Source of the DNA: a virus
IMG/VR virus record: IMGVR_UViG_3300042566_000510
Location: 13,492-77,491 of that record
Reading direction: 5' to 3' (one strand)
Length of the DNA: 64,000 nucleotides
A model generated the notes under the pieces. The model did not search any database. It saw only the letters and a list, made by a program, of their open reading frames with translations, and was not told where the DNA came from. Within the stretch, counting starts at the first letter, position 1, and each line of letters begins with the position of its first letter. Positions 4,049 to 25,649 of this stretch are shown here, piece by piece. The position numbers and the translations under genes were made by a program.

Positions 4049-6135
4049 TCCGCGAAACCCTTGTCCCATCCATCCCAGACATCCGCGACGACAACGTCAA
4101 GGATGTGCTGCGCGCCATCAAGAGCACGCTCGACGTGCGCGAGGGCAACATCGGTGACCCGCTTGACCAAGTTGTCACCATGCGAGAGCTCAGCGCTCTC
4201 AACCTGGTAGACAAGTCCAGCACCAGCACCACTTCGTACGGCGCGACCCTTCCTGTTGGCCCCGTCATTCCAGCGCCAACCGGCGGGTACAACCCGGCCA
4301 CCGACTACACGATTCCACCAGCTCCGACAAACCTGCGCGCAAGGGGTGGCTTCACCAACGTCTACCTCGAATGGGACGGGGCGCCAATCAAGAACCTCGC
4401 GTACACCGAGATCTGGCGCTCGGCAGCCGACAGCCTTGGCACGGCAGTCATGGTTGGAACCACGGCGGCCAACGTCTACGCCGACGCGGCCGCGCCAGAT
4501 ACGGAGTACTTCTACTGGGTTCGCTTTGTATCTGAGGCCAACGTCACCGGCCCGTACAACGGCACCTCTGGCACACGCGCCCGTACGGCCATGGACGTCT
4601 CGGCGGCCATCTCCGCGATTTCAGATGAGATCATAAACAGTCAGCTCTACGCCGATCTTGGTTCACGCATCTCGGCCACCGAGACCGGTATCAAGACCCT
4701 GACCGACATCACTGCCACGAGCGCAAAGAGCGTCAGCACCCTAGCCAGCGTGGTCAACGGTCACTCGGCGGCCATTGAGGTGGCGCAGTCGTCGGTCGAC
4801 GGCTTGCGTGCTCAGTACTCAGTCAAGATCGACAACAACGGGCACGTTTCAGGCTTCGGCTTGTCATCGACCATCACCAACGGCAAGCCCATGTCCGCGT
4901 TCATTGTGCGCGCAGACCGGTTCGCCATTGTGGGCGCAAACAGCACGACAGATCCGCTGGGCACACTTACACCAAGCAAGGTGCCTTTCATAGTACTGAC
5001 AACACCGACAGTCATTGGCGGCAAAACTTACCCTGCTGGCACCTGGATCGACACAGCATTCATTGCCAACGCCACGATTGCCAACGCGCAGATCTCCGAC
5101 CTGACTGCCGACAAGATCACCACCGGCAGCTTGACGGCCTCAATTGGCATTACCACCGGTAAGATCACCGGCGGCGTCAATACAGCCTACGCTTTCGGCT
5201 CGAGCAACTTCGGCACGGGCTTCTACCTCGGCTCGGACAGCGGCGTCTACAAGTTTCGCGTTGGCTCGTACGCAAAGAACATGACGTGGGATGGGACTAA
5301 CCTGTCTGTCACTGGTACTGTCTCAGCCACCGGAGCCACGTTCCAAGGCTTAACCATCACGGACGCCAGCGGTAACGTGCTGCTCTCGTCGGGCGGTGGA
5401 GTGAACGGTGCATACGTGTCTGGTCTCGGTGCGTTTGCTGGTCTTGATGAGATCACCTCTACAAACATCAGCACGTACATTGCCGACGGCGCAATCGGAA
5501 ACGCCCACATCGGTAACTTCATCTCGTCGACGAACTTCAACGGCGTCATCAATAGCAGCGGGCTCATCACCAGTAACGGCACCACAGGCTGGGCGATTGG
5601 TAAGGCTGGAAATGCCGTGTTCCAATCCATCTATGCTCGCGGAGATATCCAGGCCAGCAGCTTAAACGCAGCAACCGGAACCTTTAGTGGCACGCTCACC
5701 TCGTCTGCAATTAACGCGGTGAACACAATCAACGTGGCCGGCAACGCAGTTACTGCCATGTACTACGCCGCAGGCGGTTCTGGAACATTGGCTGCGAACG
5801 AGCAACTCAAGCTTATTACCTCAGTAAGCATCAGCATGCCGACTGGATCGAGTGGCGTTGTGATCAATGCGTTCGTGAACATGAGCGGTTACTACTCTGG
5901 CACAACGGTCTACATTGAAATCAAGCGCAACGACGGGACTCAACTCAGAGGCGTTGGCGTTTCCTTGGTGTCTGGCTTCTATTCGTCATTTGCTATCACG
6001 GCATTTGACCCGTACCCAACATCCACATACCCAACGTACGCCATGTATATCAGTAATCCGACCACCGGCCCTGGATCCAACTCTCCAGCGGACTACAGCG
6101 ATCCATCCATCCAAGCAACAGGCGGTAAGCGATGA
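4045..6135 (+). CDS. Tail tip/fibre protein (FN3-like domain plus TipJ/DUF1983-like domain)
   Basis: PPAPTNL...EIWRS...YFYWVRFV; YSVKIDNNGHVSGFGL...FIVRADRFAI; IANAQI repeats. Confidence 0.75.
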   Translation: MIRETLVPSIPDIRDDNVKDVLRAIKSTLDVREGNIGDPLDQVVTMRELSALNLVDKSSTSTTSYGATLPVGPVIPAPTGGYNPATDYTIPPAPTNLRARGGFTNVYLEWDGAPIKNLAYTEIWRSAADSLGTAVMVGTTAANVYADAAAPDTEYFYWVRFVSEANVTGPYNGTSGTRARTAMDVSAAISAISDEIINSQLYADLGSRISATETGIKTLTDITATSAKSVSTLASVVNGHSAAIEVAQSSVDGLRAQYSVKIDNNGHVSGFGLSSTITNGKPMSAFIVRADRFAIVGANSTTDPLGTLTPSKVPFIVLTTPTVIGGKTYPAGTWIDTAFIANATIANAQISDLTADKITTGSLTASIGITTGKITGGVNTAYAFGSSNFGTGFYLGSDSGVYKFRVGSYAKNMTWDGTNLSVTGTVSATGATFQGLTITDASGNVLLSSGGGVNGAYVSGLGAFAGLDEITSTNISTYIADGAIGNAHIGNFISSTNFNGVINSSGLITSNGTTGWAIGKAGNAVFQSIYARGDIQASSLNAATGTFSGTLTSSAINAVNTINVAGNAVTAMYYAAGGSGTLAANEQLKLITSVSISMPTGSSGVVINAFVNMSGYYSGTTVYIEIKRNDGTQLRGVGVSLVSGFYSSFAITAFDPYPTSTYPTYAMYISNPTTGPGSNSPADYSDPSIQATGGKR

Positions 6136-7037: not shown

Positions 7038-7905
7038 AGACATATTCAGGCTGATCGTGCCGCAGTTCATGTTTGGATTGCGCCTTGACGTGGGCGGCGG
7101 CGATGCTCCAGCTCCAGATCCTGCGATTGGCGAGGCCGCCAAAGCGAATGCCGCGCTCGGGAAAGAGGCGTTCGACTGGTACAGCAACTACTACACCAAC
7201 ACAGTCGCTCCGATGCAGCAGCGTCAGACTGAGTTGGCCCAGACGCTGACCAATGATTACTTGGACACCTCGGCCCAACAGAAGCAGTTTGCGCAAGACC
7301 AGAATGCGTACTACAAGTCTACGTTCCAGCCTGCCGAGCAGCAGATGGTGCGCGACGCCATGGACTACGACTCCGCGGCCAACATCAAGCGCGCATCTGG
7401 CGAGGCTGCAGCCAACGTCAACCAGCAGTTCAGCAACGCCCGTGGCCAAAGCGCTCGCTTGGCTGGTCGCTACGGCTTGGCATCCACCGCCTTTTCTGGC
7501 CCTGCTGGCGCCTCTGAGCGCGCTCAAGCGCTTGGCGCGGCTGGCGCTGCTACTGGTGCTGCCACCGCCACTAAAGACAAAGCCATCGCGCTGCGCTCTG
7601 GCGTGTCTAACTTCGGTCGCAACATGCCTAACACGTCGGCTCAATACTTTGCAGGCTCCAACGCCTCCAACGCAGGCGCTGGCGCTGCCGCTGGGCAAGG
7701 CTTCAACAGCACCATGGCTGCTGGCGGCTTCATGAACGGAGGCTTCGGTCTTGGCATGCAGGGCAACAGCTCCGCAGGCAGCCTCTTGCTCGGCGACTTC
7801 CAAGGTCGCATGCAAGGCTACGCCGCTGACCAGGCCGCGATTGGCGGACTGATGCAGGGTATCGGCAGCGTTGGTGCTGCCTACGGACTTAAGAAGTGGG
7901 GATAA
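7027..7905 (+). CDS. Internal virion/ejection protein
   Basis: Ala/Gly/Gln-rich, Cys-free; GGG-APAPDP N-terminal motif; C-terminal Gly-rich helix. Confidence 0.7.
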   Translation: MLIKDIFRLIVPQFMFGLRLDVGGGDAPAPDPAIGEAAKANAALGKEAFDWYSNYYTNTVAPMQQRQTELAQTLTNDYLDTSAQQKQFAQDQNAYYKSTFQPAEQQMVRDAMDYDSAANIKRASGEAAANVNQQFSNARGQSARLAGRYGLASTAFSGPAGASERAQALGAAGAATGAATATKDKAIALRSGVSNFGRNMPNTSAQYFAGSNASNAGAGAAAGQGFNSTMAAGGFMNGGFGLGMQGNSSAGSLLLGDFQGRMQGYAADQAAIGGLMQGIGSVGAAYGLKKWG

Positions 7906-9903: not shown

Positions 9904-12900
9904 ATGGAATTCAAACCATCAATCTCACCAGAGCAGTTTGACATGATGCAGGGCGGTGGCCAGCCCACCTCGTCCGCCTCTCCGTCTCAGAAGTATGCCG
10001 GAGGATTTGACGCTGCTGCGTCATTCACCCTTGGTGAGGAAGGTGGCTACGTCAAAGATGACGCCGGAGCCGGGGAAACAAACTTTGGCATCAACAAGCG
10101 GGCAAACCCAGACGTTGATATCAAGAGCTTGACCGAGTCTGGTGCGCGCGATTTATACAAGACGCGCTACTGGAATCCGATTGGCGGAGATGAGCTTGCA
10201 AAGCGCAATCCCATTCTTGCAACCATCGCTTTCGACACGGCCATCAACATGGGCCCGACGACCGCCAAGAATTTTTTACGCGCCGCGAATGGAGATCCGG
10301 CAAAGGTTCTCGAGATGCGCGCTGAGCGCTATCGCGATCTGCTTGCAGCCGATCCCAAGAAGTTCGGCAAATACGCAGATGGCTGGCAATCTCGGATGGA
10401 CAAGCTGTATGAGCTTGCAGGGACTCAGCAGCCCGCAGCGCAGCCAACGAATGACTTCAGCGGGGAAGGCTCAACTGCTGGCGGCATCGATTGGAACGCC
10501 AAAGAAAAGGGCTTCGTTGATCGCGCGTCCGAGGGGTTTAAGCGCGGCTTTGATCAGTCCATTGGCTTAGGCCAAGCGGCTGCAGCATTGGTGAACCGCA
10601 CAGTCACTGGTGAAAAGTACAACGAGTTTCAGGATGAAATGTTGCAGGCGGCAGGCAAGCGCATGCAGCCAGAGGGCAGCGCACCTACGCCTCAATTCAG
10701 CGACGTCGTTTCCGGCGGCGCGAACTTTAAAGATTGGCTTGCCGACTCGGTAGGCTACCTTGGATACCAGGCCGTTGAGATGGCGGCCTCGTTCGGTATC
10801 GGTGGACTCATCGGTAAAAACATTGCCAAAGGCGCCGTCAAAGAGGTCGCCGAGGGCATGATTGAGAAAGAGGTCGCTCGACTCGCCGCCACCGACGCAG
10901 CCAAAACTCTCAGCAAGGATGAGATCGGAGCGCTCGCGGTCAAGAACGTCGCCGGCGAGATTGCTGGCAGCATGGCCACATTTGCAAACAATCTGCGCCA
11001 AACGTCTGGCGGCGTCTACATGGAGGCGCTGGACAATGAGGCGAAGACCGGCAAGCCAGCCGACTTAACCAATGCATGGGTCGGATCAATTGGATCAGCA
11101 CTGGTTGACACCGCTGCTGACATTGCTGGCGCTCGAGGCATCTTAGGTAAAGCTGGTAGCGGAAACGCCACGTTTTTGGGCCGCGCTGCAACGCAAGTTC
11201 CGCGTCAGATGGGGATTCAAGGCGGTACGGAGTACCTGCAAAGCAACATCGAAAACGCGGCAGCAGGCACAGACCCGTTCACCGAGAAGGCTCAGATTCA
11301 GGCGTTGAACGAGGGCGCTGTAGGCGCACTTGGTGGCGTCTTTCCAGGTCTTGGGGAGGCTCGCGTTCAACGCGCTACAAACCCTTTGCAGTCAGTCATC
11401 GACCATGCCGAAAAGCCTGGCAGCGTGCTCTCGCGTGCTGTGGTTTCTACCGGCGTTACCGATCAGGCTGCAGCAGCGGCCGCATCAGAAGCCCTGCCTC
11501 CCGCGGCTGACGACCTCGTGCAACGCGTGCGCGACGTCGAAGCCGGCATGCGCAATGGCCCCGTGCTCGACAACTTGCGTGACGACGGCGTTGACACCCG
11601 TGAGCTCCTCAATGACATGCAGCTTGCCCGTCGCACGGACGCGCCACGCGTTGCCCGTGAGGCTGCCCTCGAGCGCATCGAGACGGCGATCCACTTTGCA
11701 AACCAGGACGCGCAACCGCGTGCGCCGCTGGACTCGATCCAGAGCAACCCCGCTTTCGACTTCACTCAACAAGAGCAGGTTGAGCCGCAACAAATCCCTG
11801 ACTTGTCAGCAGTATCGACCGCGCTGCGTGACCCGAATCTGCGCAACACCATTTCTGACGAAGATCGCGACCAACTGCTGTATTTGTACAACATCGCCGG
11901 AAATAGCAAGGGTGATACCGTCGTGCGCACAAATGCCGCACGTCAAGCGCTCGAGATCGTCGGCCGCTATCAAACCCCTGTCGGCACGCCAGGCAGCACA
12001 ACGCCCGCATTGGAGCAGGCTGCGCAAGCGGGTGCTGCTATTGCTACGCCTGCTGAGCAACAAACTGTTGCCGCAGAACCCAAAGAGTTGGACTTCCTGC
12101 AGGCCGTGCCCGAGCCAAAGGTCGGCATCCCTGCCGGCGAAGGTCCGGCCTTTCTGCGTAAGCGCGCTGCTGTAGTCAAGCAACTGGTCGACAACGGCTT
12201 TGAGACCGTCCAGCGCGACAGCAAAGACTTCTACCTCACCAACACCAAGACCGGCCAAAAGTTCAAGCTCGACGGCTCAGCCGATGCTCAGCTCGCTCGC
12301 AAGGCGATCAAGGATCGAGTCGACGCGCTCGCTGCAACCAACGAGAAGAATCCGTCTCAAGCCAAGATCAACGCCAACAACTACAAGAAGTCCGACGTCA
12401 TCGACTTGAACGGCATGAAGATCAAGATCGAGAACGAGCGTGGCGACATCCGCCGCGGCGTCGGTCCTGATGGAACGCCGTGGGAAACAAAGATGGCTCA
12501 CCACTACGGTGAGTTCCAGGGAACGATCGGCGCAGACGGCGACAAGCTCGACGTCTTTATTGGCCAACGCCCTGACAGCAACAAGGTGTACGTGGTCGAC
12601 CAGGTCAATCAGGACGGCTCATTCGACGAGCACAAGGTCATGATGGGCTTCACCTCGAAAGAGGATGCCAGCTCCGGCTATCTGGCCAACTACGAAAAGG
12701 GCTGGACCGGCCTTGGCGCCATCACCGAAATGAGCGTCGACGAGTTCAAGACCTGGGCCAAGTCACGCGCTGCCAAGAAGCCCGCCTCCAGCGTGCTCGA
12801 GAACGCCGCGGCCGCAGGCCAAGATCAATTCACCGAAGAAGAGAAGGCCGAGGAGAAGAGCGGCAAGTTCTTCTACGTCAATGACGGCGAGAAGCAGCAC

Positions 12901-15900
12901 AAGCTCAAGATCATCAAGCCCGGCGAGCTTTCCAAGAAGCCAAGCGCCGAGCGCCCCGGCAATCGTCGCCCTCTGACGCAGGCTGATGCCGCACTCATCG
13001 AGAAGGTCGCTGCACTTCTGGGCAAGAACGTCGTGTTCTTTGAGGCTCAAGAGGGCCGCCTCTCTGACGGCTTCGTACGCCCCGGCCAACCCGACACTAT
13101 CTACGTTGCCACCGAGACCACGGTCAATCCGCTGGCAATCTTTGGTCACGAGTTCTTTCACACCCTGCGCGAGACCAATCCCAAAGCCTGGGACGCCGTC
13201 GCTGCCGTGGTGGGCACCAAGGTCACCGCCGCCAAGCGCTTCCGCAAGGACCGCTACGGCAAGAAGGTTGCCGACGCAAAGGGCGACGCCGCACTCAGCA
13301 CTGAGGTTGGTGGCGAGCTCGAGGAGCTGGTGTCTGACCTGGGCGGCAACCTCCTAAAGGACTCCAAGTTCTGGAAAGAAGTCTTTGCCAAGATCGAAGC
13401 TGACAACGGCGCCGAAGCCAAAGGCATCATCGCCAAGCTGTCGGCCGCCATCCAGAGCGCGATCACTCGCATCGTCAAGGCGATCAACCAGCCAGGCTAC
13501 CGCGCTGACAGCTTCGTCAAGGATCTCGATCAAGTACGCGCTGCGTTCGTGGACGCAATGGCTGCGCACCTCAAGAATGGCGACGTCGAAAAGATGGCCG
13601 CCACCGCGAACCAGAAGATCAAGAAGTCCGAAGATCGCGACGGCCTCACTGTCGAGGGCTATCACTTCAGCAAGGCGCCTCGCACCGTCTTGACCACCGC
13701 CATGTTTGGCACCGGCCTCAAGGGCAGCGCTCGCGAAGACATCAAGAACAACCCAGACCAGCGCCTGCGCCAGCGCCTGTCTTTCTACTTCGACAAAGGC
13801 ACCGGCATCAATCCGGAAGCTGGCGTTGGCAGCATTGCCCACAAGGCAACTCTCACCAACATCTACGACGCCGATGCAGATCCGTTGCGCCTGCGTACGG
13901 GCGATGCACGCGCGTTCGAGTCCAAGGTTCTGGATAACGGCTACAGCGGCTACCTCCAGCGCATGCAAGGCACGCAGTCCGGCCAGGTCATCTTGCTGGG
14001 CAAGCAGACCGTCAAGCCCGAGATTCTCGGCGCTGTTGGCAAGATCACCAACGCCGAAGTGGTGCCAGCTCCCAAGCAGCGCGCCGCTGATGTTGGCGAC
14101 CAGATCATGGCCAACAAAGATCTGCCAGCGGGCGCACTGACGCCGACGCAATGGTCAGAAGCGCTGATGCAGAAGATGCCCGAAGTGGCAGCACAGCTGA
14201 TGGACATCGGCGCCTTCGAGGGCAACGACTCCATGTACAAGGATGAGCTTGTCGCCAAGGCGCGCCAGCTCTCCAGCCAGATCAAGAAGTCTGCCGATCG
14301 CGCACGCGACGAGTACGCCGAAGTCGAAGCCAAATACAAAGGCACCGACGAATGGCTGAAGGCGCCCAACGGCGAGAGCACCAACCTCAGCGAGCGCCAG
14401 TGGATCCAAGTCCGCACGCCTTCATTCAAGAAGTGGTTCGGCGACTGGGAGAAGTTTGCCGGCATGCAAGGCGGCGTTTGGAATGACGCCAAGAACGAAG
14501 TCTCCAAGGCTGTCGACAAGAACGGTGAGCCGCTGGTCGTCTACCACGGCACCAACAAAGGCGGCTTCTCTGAGTTCAACACGCCCGGCGGAGAGAAGCG
14601 CGGAGATCTTGGGATTTTTACCACGCCTAACCTGGAGATGGCGCAGACCTACTACAGCCGTCGAGGCGGAGAAATCGATCTCTCCGACAAGGACCAAGGC
14701 GATCTCGAGGATATCGGCTACCAATTCAAGCCAGGCTTTATCGTCAAAGGAAGCGATGTTGGCTTCTTTGATAGCAAAGAACAATTGCTCGAAGAGGTTG
14801 AACTCGATCCCGGCGAAGAGATTGTCGAGGCATGGGATGTCACCGATCCAAACGGCTACAACGTAGACGGGCCGCGTGATCACTCGTACTACTTTGAATC
14901 GCTTGCCGACGCCGTTGGCACAGTAAACCTAAATATGGCGCAAGAGTCGACGAAAGAGTCTGGCTATTACGCCCTGTTCGCCAACATCCGCAATCCATCC
15001 GAGAGCGACTTTGAGGGCGCCAACTGGGAAGGTTCACGCGAAGGTCAGTACAACGTCATCAATCAAGACGGCGAGCAGGTCTACGACAAAGACGGTAAAG
15101 GTGTCTTCAACTCCTATGACGAAGCCCAGGAGGTGCAGTTCGCCAACCCCGGAACTACGGTCGAAGGCGCGGCCGATCACTACGAAACCACCGATGACGT
15201 GGTTTTGAATGCAAAGCGCTACGGCAACGACGGCGCTTACATGCAGAACGTCGTGGACGCAGGCCCAGGTGGCGGCGCGTACATCGACGAGCCATCCGAT
15301 ATCTTCGTTGCGCTCGATCCATCTCAACTCAAGTCTGCCAACTACAACAGCGGCGAGTTCAGCGTTGACAGCAGCGATTTGCGCTTCTCGAAAGACCGCC
15401 TCACGCGCGAAGATCCGTTCGAGATGTCGACGCGCATCCCAACAGCCAAAGGCAAAGTGGTCGAGGACCATGCCGGAGATCTCCTGATCTCCGACTTTGC
15501 CGCCGGTCAGAAGCAGGAGAAGTGGGTCAACTCGGTGGCCAACCTGGTCGCGCAGTACCCCAACTATCGCGAAGCAGACAGCGCCAAGACGCCAGCCAAG
15601 AAGCTCGAGCGCCTTGTCCGCCATATGGTTGAGAACCTCGTCTGGTTGCACAACCAAGTGCCGGCCGAGACTCGCCAACGCAGCAAGCTGTGGTACGACG
15701 GCGCCAACCGAATTGCCGAGCGCATGTCTCGCAAGTACGAGCTGACGCCAGCGCAATCGTCCGGCATCCTCGCCGTGCTAAGCCCGCAAAAAGACTGGTT
15801 CATGAACGTGAGCCTGGGCGAGCGCGTTGCCTCGATCATGGCTGAGCGCCAGAACTTCCAATGGTCCAAGGACATGGATGCCACGGCCAACCGCATCTAT

Positions 15901-17649
15901 GGTGCGGCCAAGTACCAGGAAGACGTTGACGCCATCCGCGGCAAGTCCCTATCCGACCTGGACGGCAAAGCATACCTGCAAGCCATGTGGGTGCGCACGT
16001 ACGACCAAGCTCACAACTCGAGCTCGTTCAACATCGTGTCACCCGAAGGTGATTCGCTGGCGATCGCCAAGGCCAAGACCGGCAACCCGGTCAAGGTGGC
16101 ATGGGGCGGCAACAGCACCATTGCCAAGGCCATCTCGATCTTCAACGACGGCTCTGCAAGCAACATCAGCGAGCAGTTGGGCACCAAGCACAAGGTGCGC
16201 AACTTCTTCAACAACATCCTGGTGCCAAAGAGCAAGAACGGCCACGTCACGATCGACACGCACGCCGTCGCTGCTGCGCTGCTGCGACCTCTGTCCGGCA
16301 ACTCGCTCGAGGTGATGCAAAACTTTGGCGGCACCTCGAACGCCATCAGTGGTCTACAGGGCACCTATGCTCTGTACGAAGAGGCCTACCGCCGCGCGGC
16401 CGAAGAGCTTGGCCTTCTGCCTCGCGAGCTGCAATCAATCACCTGGGAGGCTGTCCGCGGCCTGTATACCCCGGGCTTTAAGTCACAGTCGAAAAATGTT
16501 GACGCTGTTGATAAAATATGGAATCAGTACAAGAAAGGACGACTGAGCTATGACGGAGCAAAAGAATGGGCACTCGAAACTGCGGGAGGAATTGAGCCTC
16601 CTAGCTGGCTCGGACGCGACCCTGGCGCATATGTTGAAGACGAATCGTCCATTGAGCCTGGAGACGTATCTGGAGATGGAGTATCCGGAAGGGATTCCGA
16701 AGACGCTTTCATCCGAGCAGTGGGCGATGATTCCGGAGCCGCTGAAGAGAGCATCCGACAATCAGGAGACCGAGAAGGACGGGATGAAAGCGGAGGCATT
16801 GCGCCGCTTGCAGGTGCGCCAACTGTTCAAGGCGCGTCCGGGCCAGACCCGCGGCTCGTCCAAGTAGCAAACAAGTACGCCAGCGACAACGGCATCACAC
16901 TCCGCCGCCAGGCAGAGTACGTTGAGGTTGACCCCGAGCGCGCAGCTCGGATCGCGGCCGCCTACGAGGCTATGCCGCACGCCCCGCAAGACCGCAAGGT
17001 CAAAGCAGCATTTGCCAACCTGATCCGCCAGACGCGCGCTCAGTACGACGCGCTGGTTGATGCAGGCTACAAGTTCACGTTCTTCGACTCGAAGAGCGAC
17101 CCCTACGGCGGCAACCCATGGAACGCCATGCGTGACCTGCGCGAGAACCAGCGCATGGCCGTGTACGGCACCTATGACGGCTACGGCACCGAAGGTGTGA
17201 CCAAGAGCAAGGTCGACGACAACCCAATGCTGGCCGACACCGGCCTTGAGTGGGAAGACCAGAACGGCAAGCTTCATCCAGTGCTGGCCAACGACCTGTT
17301 CCGTGCCGTGCATGATGCTTTCGGTCACGGCCTTGAGGGCACCGGCTTCCGCGCTCGCGGAGAAGAGAATGCGTGGCAGGCTCATATCCGTATGTTCACC
17401 GGCTCTGCCAAAGCTGCGATCACCACAGAAACGCGTGGCCAAAACAGCTGGCTGAACTACGGCCCGTACGGTGAAAAGAACCGCGTCGCCAAAGTTGAAG
17501 ACACAGTCTTCGCCGAACAGAAGACTGGCCTGATGCCTGAGTGGACTTGGTCTGAAGGGTTGGCTGAAGACATGCCGACCAAAGACGAGCCCACTTACAA
17601 TCAGCGCGTCAACGCCCTCAAAGATTTGATCTCCTGCCTGAAGAAATAA
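9904..17649 (+). CDS. Giant polyvalent internal virion protein: GH108 muramidase, inorganic pyrophosphatase-like, zincin peptidase, two ADP-ribosyltransferase-like, DUF7178/HhH-glycosylase-like and HDxxGH domains
   Basis: EEGGYV..GETNFGI (GH108); HYGEFQGTIGADGDKLDVF..FDEHKVMMGF; GHEFFH; YHFS..GYSGY; FKKWFGDW..PLVVYHGT..QLKS; WYDGA..LAVLSPQ..VTIDTHA..LQSITW; FRAVHDAFGH..GEENAW. Confidence 0.8.
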   Translation: MEFKPSISPEQFDMMQGGGQPTSSASPSQKYAGGFDAAASFTLGEEGGYVKDDAGAGETNFGINKRANPDVDIKSLTESGARDLYKTRYWNPIGGDELAKRNPILATIAFDTAINMGPTTAKNFLRAANGDPAKVLEMRAERYRDLLAADPKKFGKYADGWQSRMDKLYELAGTQQPAAQPTNDFSGEGSTAGGIDWNAKEKGFVDRASEGFKRGFDQSIGLGQAAAALVNRTVTGEKYNEFQDEMLQAAGKRMQPEGSAPTPQFSDVVSGGANFKDWLADSVGYLGYQAVEMAASFGIGGLIGKNIAKGAVKEVAEGMIEKEVARLAATDAAKTLSKDEIGALAVKNVAGEIAGSMATFANNLRQTSGGVYMEALDNEAKTGKPADLTNAWVGSIGSALVDTAADIAGARGILGKAGSGNATFLGRAATQVPRQMGIQGGTEYLQSNIENAAAGTDPFTEKAQIQALNEGAVGALGGVFPGLGEARVQRATNPLQSVIDHAEKPGSVLSRAVVSTGVTDQAAAAAASEALPPAADDLVQRVRDVEAGMRNGPVLDNLRDDGVDTRELLNDMQLARRTDAPRVAREAALERIETAIHFANQDAQPRAPLDSIQSNPAFDFTQQEQVEPQQIPDLSAVSTALRDPNLRNTISDEDRDQLLYLYNIAGNSKGDTVVRTNAARQALEIVGRYQTPVGTPGSTTPALEQAAQAGAAIATPAEQQTVAAEPKELDFLQAVPEPKVGIPAGEGPAFLRKRAAVVKQLVDNGFETVQRDSKDFYLTNTKTGQKFKLDGSADAQLARKAIKDRVDALAATNEKNPSQAKINANNYKKSDVIDLNGMKIKIENERGDIRRGVGPDGTPWETKMAHHYGEFQGTIGADGDKLDVFIGQRPDSNKVYVVDQVNQDGSFDEHKVMMGFTSKEDASSGYLANYEKGWTGLGAITEMSVDEFKTWAKSRAAKKPASSVLENAAAAGQDQFTEEEKAEEKSGKFFYVNDGEKQHKLKIIKPGELSKKPSAERPGNRRPLTQADAALIEKVAALLGKNVVFFEAQEGRLSDGFVRPGQPDTIYVATETTVNPLAIFGHEFFHTLRETNPKAWDAVAAVVGTKVTAAKRFRKDRYGKKVADAKGDAALSTEVGGELEELVSDLGGNLLKDSKFWKEVFAKIEADNGAEAKGIIAKLSAAIQSAITRIVKAINQPGYRADSFVKDLDQVRAAFVDAMAAHLKNGDVEKMAATANQKIKKSEDRDGLTVEGYHFSKAPRTVLTTAMFGTGLKGSAREDIKNNPDQRLRQRLSFYFDKGTGINPEAGVGSIAHKATLTNIYDADADPLRLRTGDARAFESKVLDNGYSGYLQRMQGTQSGQVILLGKQTVKPEILGAVGKITNAEVVPAPKQRAADVGDQIMANKDLPAGALTPTQWSEALMQKMPEVAAQLMDIGAFEGNDSMYKDELVAKARQLSSQIKKSADRARDEYAEVEAKYKGTDEWLKAPNGESTNLSERQWIQVRTPSFKKWFGDWEKFAGMQGGVWNDAKNEVSKAVDKNGEPLVVYHGTNKGGFSEFNTPGGEKRGDLGIFTTPNLEMAQTYYSRRGGEIDLSDKDQGDLEDIGYQFKPGFIVKGSDVGFFDSKEQLLEEVELDPGEEIVEAWDVTDPNGYNVDGPRDHSYYFESLADAVGTVNLNMAQESTKESGYYALFANIRNPSESDFEGANWEGSREGQYNVINQDGEQVYDKDGKGVFNSYDEAQEVQFANPGTTVEGAADHYETTDDVVLNAKRYGNDGAYMQNVVDAGPGGGAYIDEPSDIFVALDPSQLKSANYNSGEFSVDSSDLRFSKDRLTREDPFEMSTRIPTAKGKVVEDHAGDLLISDFAAGQKQEKWVNSVANLVAQYPNYREADSAKTPAKKLERLVRHMVENLVWLHNQVPAETRQRSKLWYDGANRIAERMSRKYELTPAQSSGILAVLSPQKDWFMNVSLGERVASIMAERQNFQWSKDMDATANRIYGAAKYQEDVDAIRGKSLSDLDGKAYLQAMWVRTYDQAHNSSSFNIVSPEGDSLAIAKAKTGNPVKVAWGGNSTIAKAISIFNDGSASNISEQLGTKHKVRNFFNNILVPKSKNGHVTIDTHAVAAALLRPLSGNSLEVMQNFGGTSNAISGLQGTYALYEEAYRRAAEELGLLPRELQSITWEAVRGLYTPGFKSQSKNVDAVDKIWNQYKKGRLSYDGAKEWALETAGGIEPPSWLGRDPGAYVEDESSIEPGDVSGDGVSGRDSEDAFIRAVGDDSGAAEESIRQSGDREGRDESGGIAPLAGAPTVQGASGPDPRLVQVANKYASDNGITLRRQAEYVEVDPERAARIAAAYEAMPHAPQDRKVKAAFANLIRQTRAQYDALVDAGYKFTFFDSKSDPYGGNPWNAMRDLRENQRMAVYGTYDGYGTEGVTKSKVDDNPMLADTGLEWEDQNGKLHPVLANDLFRAVHDAFGHGLEGTGFRARGEENAWQAHIRMFTGSAKAAITTETRGQNSWLNYGPYGEKNRVAKVEDTVFAEQKTGLMPEWTWSEGLAEDMPTKDEPTYNQRVNALKDLISCLKK
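16489..16517 (+). promoter_or_regulatory. Internal sigma70-like promoter inside the giant gene
   Basis: TCGAAA-17 bp-TAAAAT with extended -10 TG, in a local AT-rich patch; AAGGA RBS at 16535-16539. Confidence 0.5.
16550..16867 (+). CDS. Nested +1-frame gene inside the giant protein gene (candidate immunity/partner protein)
   Basis: Own promoter and RBS; protein-like sequence MLKTNRPLSLETYLEMEYPEGIPKTLSSEQWAMIPEPL; main frame becomes D/G/S/R low-complexity over much of this stretch. Confidence 0.6.
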   Translation: MTEQKNGHSKLREELSLLAGSDATLAHMLKTNRPLSLETYLEMEYPEGIPKTLSSEQWAMIPEPLKRASDNQETEKDGMKAEALRRLQVRQLFKARPGQTRGSSK

Positions 17650-17655
17650 AGAACC

Positions 17656-20600
17656 ATGGCCCAATTCTCAAACTGCCTCCAGATCGTCAACAACATGCCT
17701 GAGCGCGACCAGGAGGCTCTGCTGAGTCGACTGGATCAGCTCCAAGCTCAAGGCCTGTCAGCCAAGGAGGCGCAGCTTCAGGCGGCCATTGACGTGCTGG
17801 CGCAGGTTGAGCGCGAGGGTCAAGTTCGCAAAAGCGCAGACCGCACCTGGAGCGGGGACGGGTATCGAGCCCTGAACTACAACCCGCCAAAGAATGCAAC
17901 GGTTGCCGATGTAGTCCGATACGAAAGCGAAGAGCTTGGCAATGCAGACATTGGAGAGATGGCCGATGAGTCCGCCAATCAGCTCGGCATTGACCTTTCT
18001 GCGATCCCAGCGTCCGATGCGATCTGGGTGACGCACACCGTAGAGCAGGCAATGCAGTACGGCGAGCGCTCAGACATTGATAAATACCCCGTCAACGGCT
18101 GGCTGATCCTGGCCGACCTTGGCGACGAGGGCGCGCTACTCCTAAATCCCAAGCATGCTCAAGGCATCCTCAAGTCCGTCGACCGCCCTCAGTTCTACAG
18201 CCAGCTTCAGCGCTCAATTGAGCAAGTGCCCGAGCGCCTGGCAACCATGGCTGCGCCAGCATGGAAGCAGTGGCTCACGGCCAACGCCTCTAAGCTCGGC
18301 ATCAAGGCCGACGAGCTCGAGTGGTCCGGCATCAAGGACTACCTGGACCTGCAGGGCAAGGCCAAGCTCAATAAGGCTGATCTCTCCTCCTACCTCGACG
18401 ACAGTGGCGTCAAGATCTCCGAGGTACAGCTTGACGATGCTGATGCCAAGCGTTCGCGAGCAGACAAGGAGGCTGCAGCAAACAAACTTACGCGAGCCAC
18501 CTTGGAGCTCCGCGAAGCTACGCCAAACATTCGTCAGCTGGATGGCGCCAACCTCACCGGATGGGCCGAAGATGCCTATGCCGGCGATGAATTTGCACAG
18601 CGGAAGATCCAAGCACTTAGCCTGGATGACAACGCCATGGCTGCAGTGCGTGAATATGGCCGCGTCGCAGCCGAATTTAACGAGGTTCATAACACTCGCA
18701 ATTCACCGGCAACCAAGTACGGCCAGTACACCCTGCCAGGTGGTGAGAACTACCGCGAGGTGCTGATCACGCTGCCGGTAACGCCAAAAGATGGCGCCAC
18801 CATTCAGCAGGCGTCATCTGGTTTCTGGCGTGTCACATTCAAAAATGGCGACACGGCAATGTTCAAGACGGAGTCGGAGGCTCGCGCAGCGGCTGGCGGA
18901 AGCGATGCGTACACATCAAGTCACTGGGACCAGAAGAACATCCTTGCCCACATCCGCGTCAACGACCGAGTCGCACAAGAGCCTGGCTTCATTGTGCGCA
19001 ACACCCGCTCCGGCAACCGCAGCGAAGTGTTTGCAACCCGCGAGCAAGCTGAGGACTACCAAGCCAAGATGCCTGCGTCCTTGAAGACGGAAATCGTTGA
19101 GCAGCCTCGCGAAGTAAAAGTTCTCTTCGTGGAAGAAGTTCAATCGGACTGGGGCCAAGAAGGTAAGAAGAAAGGGTTCGCCGGCCAGAATGGCGCGCCT
19201 TTGTCTGAGCAGGAATACAAGCGCGCTGCCGAGCTGCAAAAGCGTGACCGCCTTGGCGGCGAGCCCTTGAGCGCCACTGAGCGCGCAGAGTTTGACGCGC
19301 TGATGGCCCGTCACACGCGAGCTCATGAGGGACTGATGGTTCCCAACGCCCCCTTCGTCACCAAGACCGAAGGCTGGCTCAACCTCGCGCTCAAGCGCAT
19401 CGCCATGATGGCCGTCGAGGGTGGCTACGACAAGGTGGCTTTCGTCAACGGCGAGCAGTCGGCTGACCGCTACAGCCTGGAAAAGCAAGTCGATGAGCTT
19501 TCCTACGAGCCAACAGCCAAGGGCTACTACATCAACGTGATGGCCAGCGGTCGCAACATCAAGAGTGGCGACTTCACGAAGAGCGAGCTCGAGGACATTG
19601 TCGGCAAAGAGATTGTCCAAAAGATGGACGCTCGCGAAGGCAAGGTCGAGGGCACGCCAGGGGCTCCGGACTACGAAGATTTGAAGGATATTCGCACTCT
19701 GAGTGGCGACGGTCTCAAAGTCGGCGGTGAAGGCATGAAGACCTTCTACGACAAGCTCGTGCCACAGGCTCTCAACAAGCTGCTGCCTAAGCTGGGCGGT
19801 GAGAAGCTGGGCGCCGTCGAGATCGACGTGCAAGGAACCGGCCTGCAGACTCGGTACGAGTACCAAGGCCCAGAGCTCAAGCGATCCGAGATCGATGCAA
19901 TTGCAAGGTCAGGCGATTTCTCTGTATCGATTGAGCGTCAGTTGCGCGAAATCGGTAGCTTTGTGGAAGTCGGAGTGCCCATGGCGGAGGCGGTGCAAAA
20001 GTATGGCTCCATCTCTGCGGCTGAAGCGCTCGGCGGCAAGCTGGTGCCAATGAAGAATGCGATGTCCGCGCAACCAGGCTTCGACGTCACAGACAAGATG
20101 CGCGAGACCGTGTCTGCCGGTGTGCCGCTTTTCAGCCGTGATCGCCAGACAGAGACGCCTGAGTTTAAGAAGTGGTTTGGCGACAGTAAGGTGGTGGATG
20201 CTGAGGGTAAGCCGCTGGTGGTTTATCACGGGACTGGCGGCGACTTCGATTCATTCGATGCCGCTCGCTCGGGCCAGAACTACGCTCGACGTGGCGGAGA
20301 AAAAGGCTTCTTCTTCACGAACAGGCCAATTCCCGCTGGCGTGTACGCCGAACAGGCGAGCGGAGCCTTCTTTGGTGACGAAGAGAACCCTCGCTTCGGC
20401 GACGGTACGGCCAACATCATGCCGGTGTACCTGTCGCTGCAGAATCCCTACGTCCGCAAAGCGACCGGCTCTCCTGACAAATGGTTCGATTCAAACCACA
20501 GCGCCTTGCTGGCTGCCGCCGAAAAAGCTGGCGCTGACGGCATCATTGTTAATGGCGGCAAAGGATTTGAGATCCGCAGCGTTTACATCGCATTCAGCCC

Positions 20601-23418
20601 CACCCAAATTAAATCCGCCACAGGCAACAACGGCCAGTTCGACGCGACCAACCCAGACATCCGCAAGTCTGCCGACCGCCCTTGGTTCGACGACCTGAGT
20701 AAGCTTAAGGTCACAACCAACTACCAGCTCGGCGACTTGCTGAAGACCAGCAAGAAGCTGTCTTGGTGGGATCGCACCATCGGCACACAGTACAACCTGG
20801 CGCAGAAGCACCCGCAGTTCAAGCGCGTGTTCGACGCTGTGCAGCGCTTCATCAACGACGTGTCGCTCTACGCCACCCGTGCTGCCGACCTGGCGCCAAC
20901 CTGGCTGCCAAAACTGGATGGCATTTCGGACATCAACCCGTTCAGCAAGAATTTCAAGCGCCCAGTTTCCGCGGAGGACGTCAAGGCTTTGCGTGACCCC
21001 ATCTTTGGCGGCACGCTCAAGTACACCCGCGACGAAAACGGAGAGCTGATCGAGTCGGATGATGTGTCCACTGCAGGCGTGGTGTTCACCAACGAAGAGC
21101 TGCGCACAAACTTCGGCTTGAACGATCGCCAGATCGGCCTGTACCGCGAGTTCCGCAAGTCGGTCAACAAGAGCATTTCAGACTTGGCCGTATCGGATTC
21201 GCTGCGCTACCTCGGTAAAGATGGCGAAGGCGTGCGCCAGCGAGCGCTTGACGCCGCCAATCTGGATGACGCACTAAATGCCATGGTTGCTCACCTTGAT
21301 CAGTTGATCGCTCAGCAGCCGGAGCGCGCAGAGGTACTTGAAGATAGTAAGCGCGTCATCAAAGAGAAGGCGGGCCAGGCCATCGGCGCAATGTCACGCG
21401 GTTACGCACCTTTGTCTCGCTTTGGTGAGTACACGGTCTACGCTACCGGCGAAGGGCTCGAGGAACCCATCTTCTTCATGTTCGAGAATGAGCGCGATGC
21501 AAACGTGCGTGCTCGCGAATTACAACGCGAATTCCCAGACGCCAACATTGAGCAAGGAACGATGAGCCAAGAGAGCTACAAGCTCTTTAGCGGCGTGACG
21601 CCAGAATCGCTTGCCCTGTTTGGCGAGGCTCTTGGGCTCGAGGAGTCCGGCGCCGACACCAAGTCGCAGGCATTCCAGATGATGCTGAAGATGGCCAAGG
21701 GAAACCGGTCCGCCATGAAGCGCATGATTGAGCGTAAGGGTATTGAGGGCTTCAGCGAAGATGCTGGTCGCGTGCTGGCTGGCTTCGTGTACAGCAATGC
21801 GCGTCAGATCTCGACCAACCTGCATGCCGGAGAAATCGCACGCAGTGTCCAAGAAATCGATCAGCGAAATGGCGACGTTAAGGACCAAGCTGTCCGTTTG
21901 ATGGAATACGTGCAGAACCCACGCGAAGAGGCTCAAGCCTTACGCGGCCTGATGTTTACGCAGTTCATCGGTGGCTCTATCGCTTCGGCCATAGTCAACA
22001 TGACTCAGCCGTTCACCATGACCCTGCCTTACCTGAGTCAGTTCGACGGCGCCACCGGTGCCGCCTCTCGCATGGCCGACGCAGTGAAGCTGGCCTCTCG
22101 CGGCATTCGCAATGACGACGACCTCAAGGCTGCACTCAAGCGCGGAGAGGATCTCGGGATTGTTAGTCCGCAGGAAGTGCATCAGCTCATGGCTCAGGCT
22201 CAAGGCAAGGGCAAGCTGCAAACCGGCGACGGCACCAAGATGGGCGACGCTGCGGCCAAGGTGAACAACGGCCTAGCCAAGCTTGGTCTGGCGTGGGGCA
22301 AGGTGTTCTCGGCTGCCGAACAGTTCAACCGTCGCGTGACCTTCATCGCTGCCTACAAGCTGGCTCGCGACCAAGGCATGGCCGATCCAATGGCTTTCGC
22401 TGAGAAGGCCATCGCTGAGACGCAAGGCGTGTACAACAAAGGCAACAAGCCAAACTGGGCTCGCGGCGCAGTGGGCGGCACCTTGTTCACGTTCAAGCAG
22501 TATTCAATCGGCTACCTCGAGTTCTTGCGCCGCATGTGGGGTAACGGACCAGAGGGCAAGAAGGCCGTCGGCCTCGCGCTTGGCGTGTTGTTCCTCATGT
22601 CTGGCTTGGGCGGCATGCCTGGCTCCGACGATCTGGATGACGTCATCGACGGCTTCATGCAGCGCGTGCTCGGCCGTAGCTTTGACAGCAAGCAAGCGAA
22701 GAAAGAGTTCTTCGCCAGCATCCTGGGTCAATCCGGCGCTGAGTTTGTGATGAGCGGACTGTCTGGCTTGCCAGGCATGCCAATCGACTTCTCCGGTCGC
22801 ACGGGTCTAGGCAACATAGCTCCAGGCACTGGCATCTTCACCAAGAAGCGCGACTACGCCCAGGACTACAAAGAGGTGCTTGGCCCTGTCGGCACGCTGG
22901 CAACAAATGCAGGATCTTTCCTGGCAAACTTTGCGGCCGGCGAGTTCGGCAAGGCTGCGGAATCGGTTGCGCCGGTTGCTGCGCAGAACGTCATCAAGGC
23001 AATCGACATGGCGCAGATGGGCTTCTATCGCGATGCTAAGGGCCGCAAGGTCATTGACACAACGCTGAGCGAAGCCATCCTCAAGGGTGCAGGCTTCCAG
23101 CCACGTTCGGTCAGTCAGATCCAGCAAGCCACCGGCGAGCAGCAGGGTCTCATCGCGCAGAACCGTTTGGCATGGCAGGAGATCCGTGATCTCGCTGTTG
23201 CCGGTCGCGTCGAGAAGGATGAGGCCAAGCTTGCAGAGGCGCGCCGTCGCTTTGGCCAGTGGAATCGCAACAACCCTGACAGCCCAATCCGCTGGAATCA
23301 AGAGTCCATCAACAGCGGCGTCAAAGAAGCCAACAAGCCAAAGGCTGAGCGCATCGCTGATGCTGCGCCCAAGCAGATCCGCGGCACAGTCAAGCGAGAA
23401 CTTGAGAAGGCCGACTGA
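17656..23418 (+). CDS. Second polyvalent internal virion protein: ART-like cassettes, EEVQSD domain, C-terminal PLxRFG domain
   Basis: GYRA..IWVT..QYG; YREVLITLP..FVEEVQSDW..PNAPF; FKKWFGDSKVVDAEGKPLVVYHGT..QIKSATGNNG; GYAPLSRFG. Confidence 0.8.
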   Translation: MAQFSNCLQIVNNMPERDQEALLSRLDQLQAQGLSAKEAQLQAAIDVLAQVEREGQVRKSADRTWSGDGYRALNYNPPKNATVADVVRYESEELGNADIGEMADESANQLGIDLSAIPASDAIWVTHTVEQAMQYGERSDIDKYPVNGWLILADLGDEGALLLNPKHAQGILKSVDRPQFYSQLQRSIEQVPERLATMAAPAWKQWLTANASKLGIKADELEWSGIKDYLDLQGKAKLNKADLSSYLDDSGVKISEVQLDDADAKRSRADKEAAANKLTRATLELREATPNIRQLDGANLTGWAEDAYAGDEFAQRKIQALSLDDNAMAAVREYGRVAAEFNEVHNTRNSPATKYGQYTLPGGENYREVLITLPVTPKDGATIQQASSGFWRVTFKNGDTAMFKTESEARAAAGGSDAYTSSHWDQKNILAHIRVNDRVAQEPGFIVRNTRSGNRSEVFATREQAEDYQAKMPASLKTEIVEQPREVKVLFVEEVQSDWGQEGKKKGFAGQNGAPLSEQEYKRAAELQKRDRLGGEPLSATERAEFDALMARHTRAHEGLMVPNAPFVTKTEGWLNLALKRIAMMAVEGGYDKVAFVNGEQSADRYSLEKQVDELSYEPTAKGYYINVMASGRNIKSGDFTKSELEDIVGKEIVQKMDAREGKVEGTPGAPDYEDLKDIRTLSGDGLKVGGEGMKTFYDKLVPQALNKLLPKLGGEKLGAVEIDVQGTGLQTRYEYQGPELKRSEIDAIARSGDFSVSIERQLREIGSFVEVGVPMAEAVQKYGSISAAEALGGKLVPMKNAMSAQPGFDVTDKMRETVSAGVPLFSRDRQTETPEFKKWFGDSKVVDAEGKPLVVYHGTGGDFDSFDAARSGQNYARRGGEKGFFFTNRPIPAGVYAEQASGAFFGDEENPRFGDGTANIMPVYLSLQNPYVRKATGSPDKWFDSNHSALLAAAEKAGADGIIVNGGKGFEIRSVYIAFSPTQIKSATGNNGQFDATNPDIRKSADRPWFDDLSKLKVTTNYQLGDLLKTSKKLSWWDRTIGTQYNLAQKHPQFKRVFDAVQRFINDVSLYATRAADLAPTWLPKLDGISDINPFSKNFKRPVSAEDVKALRDPIFGGTLKYTRDENGELIESDDVSTAGVVFTNEELRTNFGLNDRQIGLYREFRKSVNKSISDLAVSDSLRYLGKDGEGVRQRALDAANLDDALNAMVAHLDQLIAQQPERAEVLEDSKRVIKEKAGQAIGAMSRGYAPLSRFGEYTVYATGEGLEEPIFFMFENERDANVRARELQREFPDANIEQGTMSQESYKLFSGVTPESLALFGEALGLEESGADTKSQAFQMMLKMAKGNRSAMKRMIERKGIEGFSEDAGRVLAGFVYSNARQISTNLHAGEIARSVQEIDQRNGDVKDQAVRLMEYVQNPREEAQALRGLMFTQFIGGSIASAIVNMTQPFTMTLPYLSQFDGATGAASRMADAVKLASRGIRNDDDLKAALKRGEDLGIVSPQEVHQLMAQAQGKGKLQTGDGTKMGDAAAKVNNGLAKLGLAWGKVFSAAEQFNRRVTFIAAYKLARDQGMADPMAFAEKAIAETQGVYNKGNKPNWARGAVGGTLFTFKQYSIGYLEFLRRMWGNGPEGKKAVGLALGVLFLMSGLGGMPGSDDLDDVIDGFMQRVLGRSFDSKQAKKEFFASILGQSGAEFVMSGLSGLPGMPIDFSGRTGLGNIAPGTGIFTKKRDYAQDYKEVLGPVGTLATNAGSFLANFAAGEFGKAAESVAPVAAQNVIKAIDMAQMGFYRDAKGRKVIDTTLSEAILKGAGFQPRSVSQIQQATGEQQGLIAQNRLAWQEIRDLAVAGRVEKDEAKLAEARRRFGQWNRNNPDSPIRWNQESINSGVKEANKPKAERIADAAPKQIRGTVKRELEKAD

Positions 23419-24500: not shown

Positions 24501-24509
24501 AGGGTGGCC

Positions 24510-25649
24510 ATGGGCGTCCGTCAGACCCCGAGCGGGAAGTTCGAGCTGCGCATCACGCACCGTCTGTTGCCGAAGGCGGTGTACCTCACCTTCAACAACG
24601 AAGACGCTGCCAACGCGTACGGCGCGCAAGCACGCGAGCTCCTCGACTCTGGTGTTGTGCCGGCCGGACTGGTCGATGAGAAGAAGGTGCCAACGCAAAC
24701 GCTGCACTCAGTGATCCGCGCATGGCAGGCGCACGGTCAACTCTCCACGGCTGATGACGAGATCCTCGACGTGCTGACGGGAGAGATCGGCAAGACCAAG
24801 CTGTCCGAGTTCACGTACGCCTGGTGCGAGCAATGGGTGCGCGATATGAAGCTCAAGGCCAACCTGGCGCCCGGCACCATCCGTAAGCGCATCGGCGCCC
24901 TCGCCCGCTGCGTTGACTGGGAACTCAGGAAGACGCCGGACCTGCTGGTCGGCAACCCCTTGCGCTCACTTCCGCGCGGATCAGCCACCTACAGCGCCAA
25001 GGATGCAGCGGAAGCGAAGAAGCTGGGCAAGAAGGTGCGGCAGGACGCAGTGCGTGATCGGCGCCTGCACAGTGGCGAGCATGAGCGAATCATGAAAGCG
25101 CTGGCCGGCGAAAAGCGAGAGGACCGTCAGCGGCCGCTCGAGCCCGATGAAGACCTGCGCGACCTGTACCTACTGATCTTGCATACAGGTATTCGACTGC
25201 GCGAGGCGTACACCATTAAGCGTGAACAGGCCGGCGAACGCGTGCTGCGCATCAGCAGCTCGAAACAGTGGCACGGGCGGGAAGCCTGGCGCGATGTGCC
25301 CATGGTCAAAGAGATCCGTCAGATGATGGCCCGTCGTGCCGCTAAATCAAAGCCAGGAGCGCTTGTTTTCCCTTGGTGGGACGGAGACCCCCAAGAGCTC
25401 GACAAGGTCACCACGCGGCTCTCTCGTCGCTTTGGCTTGCTGTTCAACTACGCAGGTTGCGTAGACTTGACTGAGCACGACTTGCGTCACGAGGCGACGT
25501 GCCGTTGGTTTGAGATGCGCGACAAGAGGGGTGGCTGGCTTTTCCGCGAAGCTGAGATCGAGAAGATCATGGGCTGGGCGCCGGACAGCTCAATGGCCAA
25601 GCGCTACGCATCATTCCGAGCTGAAGACCTAGCCGAGCGTCTTGACTGA
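24510..25649 (+). CDS. int: Tyrosine recombinase (integrase)
   Basis: HTGIRLRE, HDLRHEA, IMGW..MAKRY catalytic motifs. Confidence 0.93.
   Translation: MGVRQTPSGKFELRITHRLLPKAVYLTFNNEDAANAYGAQARELLDSGVVPAGLVDEKKVPTQTLHSVIRAWQAHGQLSTADDEILDVLTGEIGKTKLSEFTYAWCEQWVRDMKLKANLAPGTIRKRIGALARCVDWELRKTPDLLVGNPLRSLPRGSATYSAKDAAEAKKLGKKVRQDAVRDRRLHSGEHERIMKALAGEKREDRQRPLEPDEDLRDLYLLILHTGIRLREAYTIKREQAGERVLRISSSKQWHGREAWRDVPMVKEIRQMMARRAAKSKPGALVFPWWDGDPQELDKVTTRLSRRFGLLFNYAGCVDLTEHDLRHEATCRWFEMRDKRGGWLFREAEIEKIMGWAPDSSMAKRYASFRAEDLAERLD

Follow-up and report, generated by a model that had tools for sequence, protein, structure and literature searches.

Genomic locus of the two giant genes

The stretch of viral DNA analyzed here, referred to as the window, comprises 64,000 nucleotides (nt). 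It corresponds to positions 13,492 to 77,491 of the IMG/VR virus record IMGVR_UViG_3300042566_000510, which is 77.5 kb long and carries direct terminal repeats. The subject of the analysis is a pair of consecutive giant genes whose products, P0001 and P0002, contain one cysteine (Cys) each, located at the two protein ends that face each other across the gene junction. An overview of the locus is given in Table 1. The genes of the virion module are arranged in the order terminase, portal, major head protein, tail proteins, internal virion protein, tail fibre, small ejection-type proteins of 292 and 653 amino acids (aa), the two giant genes, and an integrase. No family match was obtained for the 653-aa protein in the family searches.

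P0001 combines a GH108 muramidase domain, an InPase domain, ART-PolyVal and DUF7178 (all Pfam matches) with an HExxH motif and a widely conserved C-terminal domain, which is followed by a short tail. P0002 is composed of an N-terminal module, ART-PolyVal and a PLxRFG-type C-terminal region (Pfam, PHROG). The PHROG matches of the giants are the DarB-like phrog_10089 and PLxRFG-type homologues. By domain content, P0001 and P0002 are thus large polyvalent proteins encoded at the position of podophage ejection proteins. The ATG at 17656 is the earliest possible start of the P0002 gene.

Table 1 Features of the P0001-P0002 locus (positions in the window) and location of the ferritin-like gene in other genomes
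Feature	Position	Strand	Evidence and remarks
First small ejection / internal virion protein, 292 aa	7027..7905	+	phrog_8003 virion structural protein, E 6.5e-46; Cys count 0
Second ejection-type protein, 653 aa	7909..9870	+	Placed between first ejection protein and giants; Cys count 0
P0001, giant polyvalent protein, 2581 aa	9904..17649	+	Pfam matches; single Cys at residue 2578
Putative C-terminal docking helix of P0001, residues 2565-2581, TYNQRVNALKDLISCLKK	17596..17646	+	AlphaFold2 helix; tail solely at C-termini; motif [ST/A/E]CL[KQRG]K conserved
Codon of Cys2578 (TGC), sole Cys of P0001	17635..17637	+	
TAA stop and 6-nt spacer AGAACC	17647..17655	+	No clear Shine-Dalgarno sequence; both reading frames in one frame
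P0002, giant polyvalent protein, 1920 aa	17656..23418	+	Pfam and PHROG matches; single Cys at residue 7
Putative N-terminal three-helix docking module of P0002, residues 1-63, ending in linker VRKSADR	17656..17844	+	AlphaFold2 helices; module solely at N-termini
Codon of Cys7 (TGC), sole Cys of P0002	17674..17676	+	
Ferritin-like gene in other genomes	L098:10035-10538 (G004); L094 ~7334-7830; L145:5865-6350; L146:5628-6119; G003 between B and C		

Terminal cysteines of P0001 and P0002

Counted on the translations, the only Cys of P0001 is residue 2578 of 2581 (C-terminus ...NALKDLISCLKK) and that of P0002 is residue 7 (N-terminus MAQFSNCLQIV...). The terminal Cys-bearing peptides are ...DLISCLKK in P0001 and MAQFSNCLQIVNNMPER, or its Met-processed form, in P0002. 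The tail-fibre-like protein (4045-6135) contains no Cys, and neither do the 292-aa and 653-aa proteins. An earlier note on this DNA, made from the letters alone, had described a single Cys at the facing end of each giant and Cys-free ejection proteins upstream; both descriptions were confirmed by the counts, and 17635-17676 spans exactly the distance from Cys codon to Cys codon. In the non-structural open reading frames (ORFs) of the window, 1.6% of the residues are Cys. With one randomly placed Cys per protein, the chance of both lying so near the facing ends is about 6e-6, calculated as (4/2581)x(7/1920).

Conservation of the terminal cysteines

For P0002, the best 120 homologues were compared (1056-3360 aa, 116 complete). 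Exactly one Cys, at residue 4-13, is present in 80 of the 116 complete proteins, and 24 have no Cys. The first 13 residues account for 84 of the 134 Cys in total, and non-terminal Cys make up 0.018% of residues, compared to 1.6% in the non-structural ORFs of the window. The N-terminal module types found among these homologues are MAxFxNCLQIV, MSTLKISGCMxVV, MSLTTCLKK and MAxxC[TS]YxF.

For P0001, 120 homologues of its C-terminal domain were collected. They contain 48 Cys in 341,888 residues, and 31 of these Cys are among the 8 residues at the C-terminus. Of the 25 proteins that stop no more than 200 aa after the C-terminal domain, 23 carry a Cys at this place; of the 95 that continue beyond the domain, 87 are without a C-terminal Cys. 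In the P0001 and P0002 families alike, the terminal modules diverge, and the terminal Cys is what they conserve best.

Cys is essentially absent from relatives that are fused into a single chain of 2000-5000 aa. Cys-free fused giants include gp16 of Octadecabacter virus BD1 (2986 aa) and the proteins of Planktothrix phage Pag-Yong1 (2772 aa) and Microcystis phage Mel-JY33 (4012 aa), furthermore several IMG/VR ORFs of more than 4000 aa and those of most Burkholderiales prophages. The C-terminal ~20 residues of P0001 and the N-terminal 63 of P0002 are found solely at termini and never within fused relatives. They are dedicated end pieces rather than leftovers of a domain that was split. In the phage collection, none of the cultured phages was found to have a polyvalent pair that is split and Cys-tipped; the cultured relatives are fused.

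Cys in other positions were also observed. Some otherwise Cys-free fused giants hold one internal C-x5-C-x3-C cluster (L111 ORF 437-12223, residues 1870-1880; P0106; P0107; L169); an inserted domain with a small metal site is the probable explanation. In BD1 (gp14, L103:8369-8872), Mel-JY33 (L105:7727-8227) and G006 (L122:6367-7473), the first of the small ejection proteins starts with M-C and has no other Cys. This start may represent another terminal-Cys contact.

Pairing of the terminal cysteines across genomes

Pairing was assessed on loci from IMG/VR, GTDB and GenBank. Both Cys are present together in every genome with both ends readable, that is, at 17 junctions in 15 genomes: the window, G005, G010, L002, G001, G002, G003 and G004 (two junctions each), L145, L146, Anabaena phage A-4L, G006, G007, L200 and L228. 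The disulfide idea of the earlier note thereby survived the check for co-conservation of the pair: the Cys is the best-kept feature of each terminal module, the pair is complete wherever both ends can be read, and it is missing from fused relatives.

In G006, G007, L200 and L228, a distance of 3.7-5.9 kb, occupied by tail-fibre genes, separates the partners, and neither Cys has been lost, which rules out a signal at the DNA or translational level. G004 and G003 encode series of three proteins, in which the first carries the C-terminal Cys only, the middle one both (MAKRC...NCPL*) and the last the N-terminal Cys only. This distribution fits head-to-tail pairing and does not fit pairing of like ends. 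Certain module types occur together, namely CLKK with NCLQIV or SGCM, KKCMG or RECLG with MSLTTC, and INCD with M..C.Y.F. In this small sample of related genomes, the association of C- and N-terminal types is suggestive of cognate docking pairs.

In five lineages with C-termini of the INC[DK] or CP type, a gene for a ferritin-like protein of 161-174 aa (Pfam Ferritin, E 1.8e-19) is inserted precisely between the two partners (Table 1). It may be linked to oxidation of the Cys pair, or its product may be packaged cargo. In the window, no ferritin-like gene is located between the P0001 and P0002 genes.

Structure and reading frame of the junction

The junction was modelled with AlphaFold2 as a read-through fusion from three sequences. 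Four helices were obtained, comprising residues 2565-2581 of P0001 and residues 1-13, 16-31 and 36-63 of P0002. The predicted local distance difference test score (pLDDT) is 77-93 overall and 87-93 for the P0002 helices, with a predicted template modelling score of 0.62. Both Cys are predicted to sit in helices of a compact four-helix bundle. The amphipathic helices proposed in the earlier note are thus retained as helices (2565-2581 and 1-13); their amphipathic character found little support, as the hydrophobic moments of 0.37 and 0.34 are reached by 14-16% of shuffles and are not significant.

The spacing at direct junctions is 4 nt in G010, 5 nt in A-4L, 2 nt in LPP-1, 14 nt in TR020 and 5 nt in CHP58, and the genes overlap in Pf-WMP4. 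Five further direct junctions have an in-frame gap behind a TAA stop, as in the window. A TAA followed by 3-12 nt, in one frame and without a clear Shine-Dalgarno sequence, is present at 17647-17655 of the window and at the junctions in L100, L002, L093, L098 and L125; such junctions suggest termination-reinitiation coupling. Overall, the in-frame state holds at 7/14 junctions and is therefore probably not selected. Programmed read-through or a recent nonsense split was dropped because just half of the direct junctions are in frame and the pair persists with genes kilobases apart. A split intein with protein trans-splicing was likewise rejected: 3 residues follow Cys2578 and 6 precede Cys7, whereas an N-intein of ~100 aa and a C-intein of ~35 aa are needed.

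A proposed disulfide tether between P0001 and P0002

We consider it likely that P0001 and P0002 are virion ejection proteins joined head to tail by terminal docking modules and a Cys2578-Cys7 disulfide. A bond of this kind has been observed by cryo-electron microscopy (cryo-EM) in cyanophage A4 (Anabaena phage A-4L), where the C-terminal helix of gp27 is located in a cleft of gp26 and Cys1715 forms a disulfide with Cys5 (PMC12002296; PNAS 2025; PDB 9K2V/9K3A). The core of the interpretation, a docking helix and a disulfide, is strongly supported by the co-conservation of the two Cys and by this experimental analogue. For the proposal of the earlier note as a whole, in which the tether would also serve packaging and ordered ejection and be released in the reducing cytoplasm, the support is partial and applies to this core.

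Under the tether interpretation, both giants would have been purged of all Cys but one, which sits in each case in a dedicated terminal docking module. In the procapsid, the P0001 helix 2565-2581 would dock on residues 1-63 of P0002, the small helical module at its N-terminus, and the intermolecular disulfide would form once the particle meets an oxidising medium. The two chains would then be held 1:1, head to tail, inside the capsid. Such a tether would be a post-translational, covalent substitute for gene fusion, related phages encoding one fused chain of 3500-5000 aa. It would keep the packed pre-ejectosome together and let the first protein draw the second through the tail. Inside the host, the link would be opened again, through reduction or through cleavage at an S-x-D-R linker behind the P0002 module. 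We infer the bond in this phage, and likewise its opening in the host by either route; the role in pre-ejectosome cohesion and in pulling the second protein through the tail is less certain.

The linker belongs to a recurrent motif, [KRFQ]-S-x-D-R (window 13621-20680), which is found four times in P0001 (residues 1241, 1462, 1828 and 2286) and five times in P0002 (59, 173, 601, 826 and 1004). The nine copies compare to ~0.2 expected (~0.1 per protein), an enrichment of about 40-fold. Since the copy at P0002 residues 59-63 directly follows the N-terminal module, proteolytic release is an alternative as open as reduction. Together with the HExxH motif of P0001, these motifs suggest self-processing of the injected chain.

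Several points weigh against the tether. P0001 and P0002 have no sequence or profile similarity to gp27 and gp26 (BLASTP E 0.14-0.68; hhalign probability 0.3%; no shared PHROG), and phmmer against the PDB, which holds 9k3a_A, gave no match for either. A disulfide of this kind has been seen directly in A4 and in no polyvalent-protein phage, and virion packaging of the two giants is deduced from gene order and family names. The junction model rests on an artificial read-through linker and three sequences only and gives no Cys-Cys distance. As particles assemble in the reducing cytoplasm, the bond could form only after release. Finally, L030, L032, L033, L044 and L045 (...RRKNK*/MSYDSQ...) as well as L075 are split relatives without terminal Cys, whose downstream proteins are only candidate partners.

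Other roles of the two Cys were weighed against the disulfide. It is improbable that the modules dock non-covalently and that both Cys jointly bind a metal (Zn or Fe) or are cross-linked in a different way, for instance through a thioether or Lys-Cys bridge. One Cys per chain could build a shared site, and the five lineages with a ferritin-like gene exactly between the partner genes would be in line with it. However, no conserved His, Asp or second Cys is found beside either Cys across the module families, the window lacks a ferritin-like gene at this place, and a plain disulfide was modelled in the A4 cryo-EM structure (PMC12002296). Bonds between like ends, resulting in P0001-P0001 and P0002-P0002 homodimers, are very improbable. 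A lone, exposed Cys is able to dimerise under oxidising conditions, and the sequence alone does not name the partner, but the Cys always come as a facing pair, only facing ends carry Cys in three-protein chains, C- and N-terminal module types associate, and A4 has a hetero bond (PMC12002296).

It appears highly implausible that the terminal Cys are lipidation sites that aid insertion into the host membrane, with a CaaX-like CLKK being prenylated or a lipobox-like N-terminus (ISGC, LTAC) being acylated. CLKK does have the CaaX geometry of a Cys plus three residues, and some N-terminal motifs resemble a lipobox. The other C-termini (CEL, CPL, CP, CD, CQF, C), however, do not fit CaaX, just 3-8 residues precede the N-terminal Cys, far too few for a signal peptide, and the pairing of the Cys would be left unexplained. 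ORF 6477-7037 matches no Pfam family, and a prenyltransferase identity was rejected for it on this basis. Practically no weight is given to chance or a neutral by-product of a very low Cys content. One Cys per protein can fall anywhere, and ejection proteins are already known to be poor in Cys (PMC11445570), but against this stand the probability of ~6e-6 for the window and the recurrence of the same positions in hundreds of homologues and several unrelated module families.

Wider implications

It is conceivable, if rather doubtful, that terminal one-Cys docking modules are a general, exchangeable coupling system of protein-injecting tailed phages, with the ferritin-like protein acting in bond formation or control and the A4 bond being one instance across Saffermanviridae, crAss-like phages and polyvalent-protein podophages. 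If so, selection could distribute a giant ejection or effector protein over two or three genes, not necessarily adjacent, and the products would still be delivered as one covalent thread. Cognate module types would set the chain order, and a redox or proteolytic switch in the host would free the cargo. The kind of link is known from one published structure, that of A4; no description was found of such a link in polyvalent-protein phages, where the modules differ, partner genes need not be adjacent and chains can have three links.

Podophages have to store proteins with thousands of residues and deliver them in the right order via a narrow tail; how they manage this is an open question. A conserved covalent tether that can be read from the sequence would account for the purging of Cys, for split genes working as a single chain, and for the order in which the proteins follow each other. 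It would also provide a simple annotation rule for ejection-protein partners in metagenomes, and foreign cargo could be loaded into phage heads with the terminal modules as small, orthogonal covalent connectors.

Further observations on the locus

The InPase domain of P0001 (window 12370-12760, residues 825-960) matches the 'gp19 Portal' chain of PDB 9b41 (E 9e-33, portal residues 629-761), so the same domain can ride on a portal protein. A tyrosine integrase is encoded at 24504-25649 of the window, directly after the giant genes, which makes it probable that the phage is temperate. The nearest prophage relatives are found in the Burkholderiales genera Polynucleobacter, Rhodoferax, Polaromonas, Variovorax and Comamonas.

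Comparison with known systems

The ejection proteins of Schitoviridae (N4 gp50, DEV gp71-gp73) are nearly Cys-free, which has been ascribed to their passage through the oxidising periplasm (PMC11445570). P0001 and P0002 resemble these ejected giants in being almost devoid of Cys. In contrast, no terminal Cys pair is reported in that study, and the few Cys present were put down to annotation errors (PMC11445570).

In crAss001, giant virion cargo and RNA-polymerase proteins carry Cys at facing ends, as in the window. A check of the sequences located the sole Cys of gp47 at residue 2339 of 2341, two in gp50 (Cys5 and Cys2404 of 2412) and the sole Cys of gp49 at residue 5. The N-termini follow M-[AS]-K-[KR]-C, a motif similar to MAKRC in G004 and MSKHC in A4 gp26. 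crAss001 differs in belonging to another phage order, in the proteins involved and in the location of gp47 on the opposite strand, and the pattern is known there from sequences.

By their domains, P0001 and P0002 are members of the large polyvalent proteins of phages and conjugative elements (ART-PolyVal, InPase and LPD domains, PLxRFG; P1 DarB-like). Relatives are single fused chains of 2000-5000 aa. Literature searches turned up no account of terminal docking modules or of Cys pairs in large polyvalent proteins. Outside phages, the docking domains of polyketide and non-ribosomal peptide synthases are short cognate helical modules at facing C- and N-termini, which set the chain order and are lost on gene fusion. 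The likeness, an analogy from general knowledge, lies in the ordering of giant chains by terminal helical modules; unlike the proposed tether, these domains act non-covalently, and their sequences are unrelated to the phage modules.

The closest precedent is A4. In the A-4L genome, gp27 (1717 aa) has Cys1715 only and gp26 (1114 aa) has Cys5 only, and the pair is kept in five further Saffermanviridae phages at ~25% identity. Cultured phages with such a pair are A-4L, Pf-WMP3/4, LPP-1 and crAss001. The A4 study treats the tether in its main text as one bond in one phage and does not discuss its spread; the 'mortise-and-tenon' picture drawn there suggests that it stabilises the packed core (PMC12002296). 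As in the window, two consecutive giants are located downstream of two smaller ejection proteins (gp29, gp28, gp27, gp26 in A-4L; 292, 653, 2581 and 1920 aa here). The sole Cys of the upstream giant is close to the C-terminus (Cys1715/1717 in gp27; Cys2578/2581 here, in a predicted helix), and that of the downstream giant is close to the N-terminus (Cys5 in gp26; Cys7 here).

Differences concern the domain content and the terminal modules. The A4 proteins are without polyvalent effector domains, which P0001 and P0002 carry; the lytic domain is part of gp28 in A4 and is located at the N-terminus of P0001 here; and the terminal modules of the window, a CLKK helix and a three-helix module, are of another type than those of A4. 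Homology to gp26 and gp27 was rejected on the negative results of BLASTP, phmmer against the PDB, PHROGs and hhalign. AlphaFold2 modelled the C-terminal 900 aa of P0002 poorly (pLDDT 55), and a Foldseek search of the PDB with this poor model returned nothing at E<=0.001. Because of the missing sequence and profile similarity, the A4 precedent is an analogy, or a homology too remote to detect. Some features hint at a bridge between the two groups: the ending ...PCEL* of LPP-1 resembles ...NCEL* of G004, M-x-K-x-C N-termini occur in both, and the middle protein of G004 contains the C-terminal domain of P0001 (66% identity). By analogy, P0001 and P0002 would thus work like the A4 pair without being members of the gp27 and gp26 protein families.

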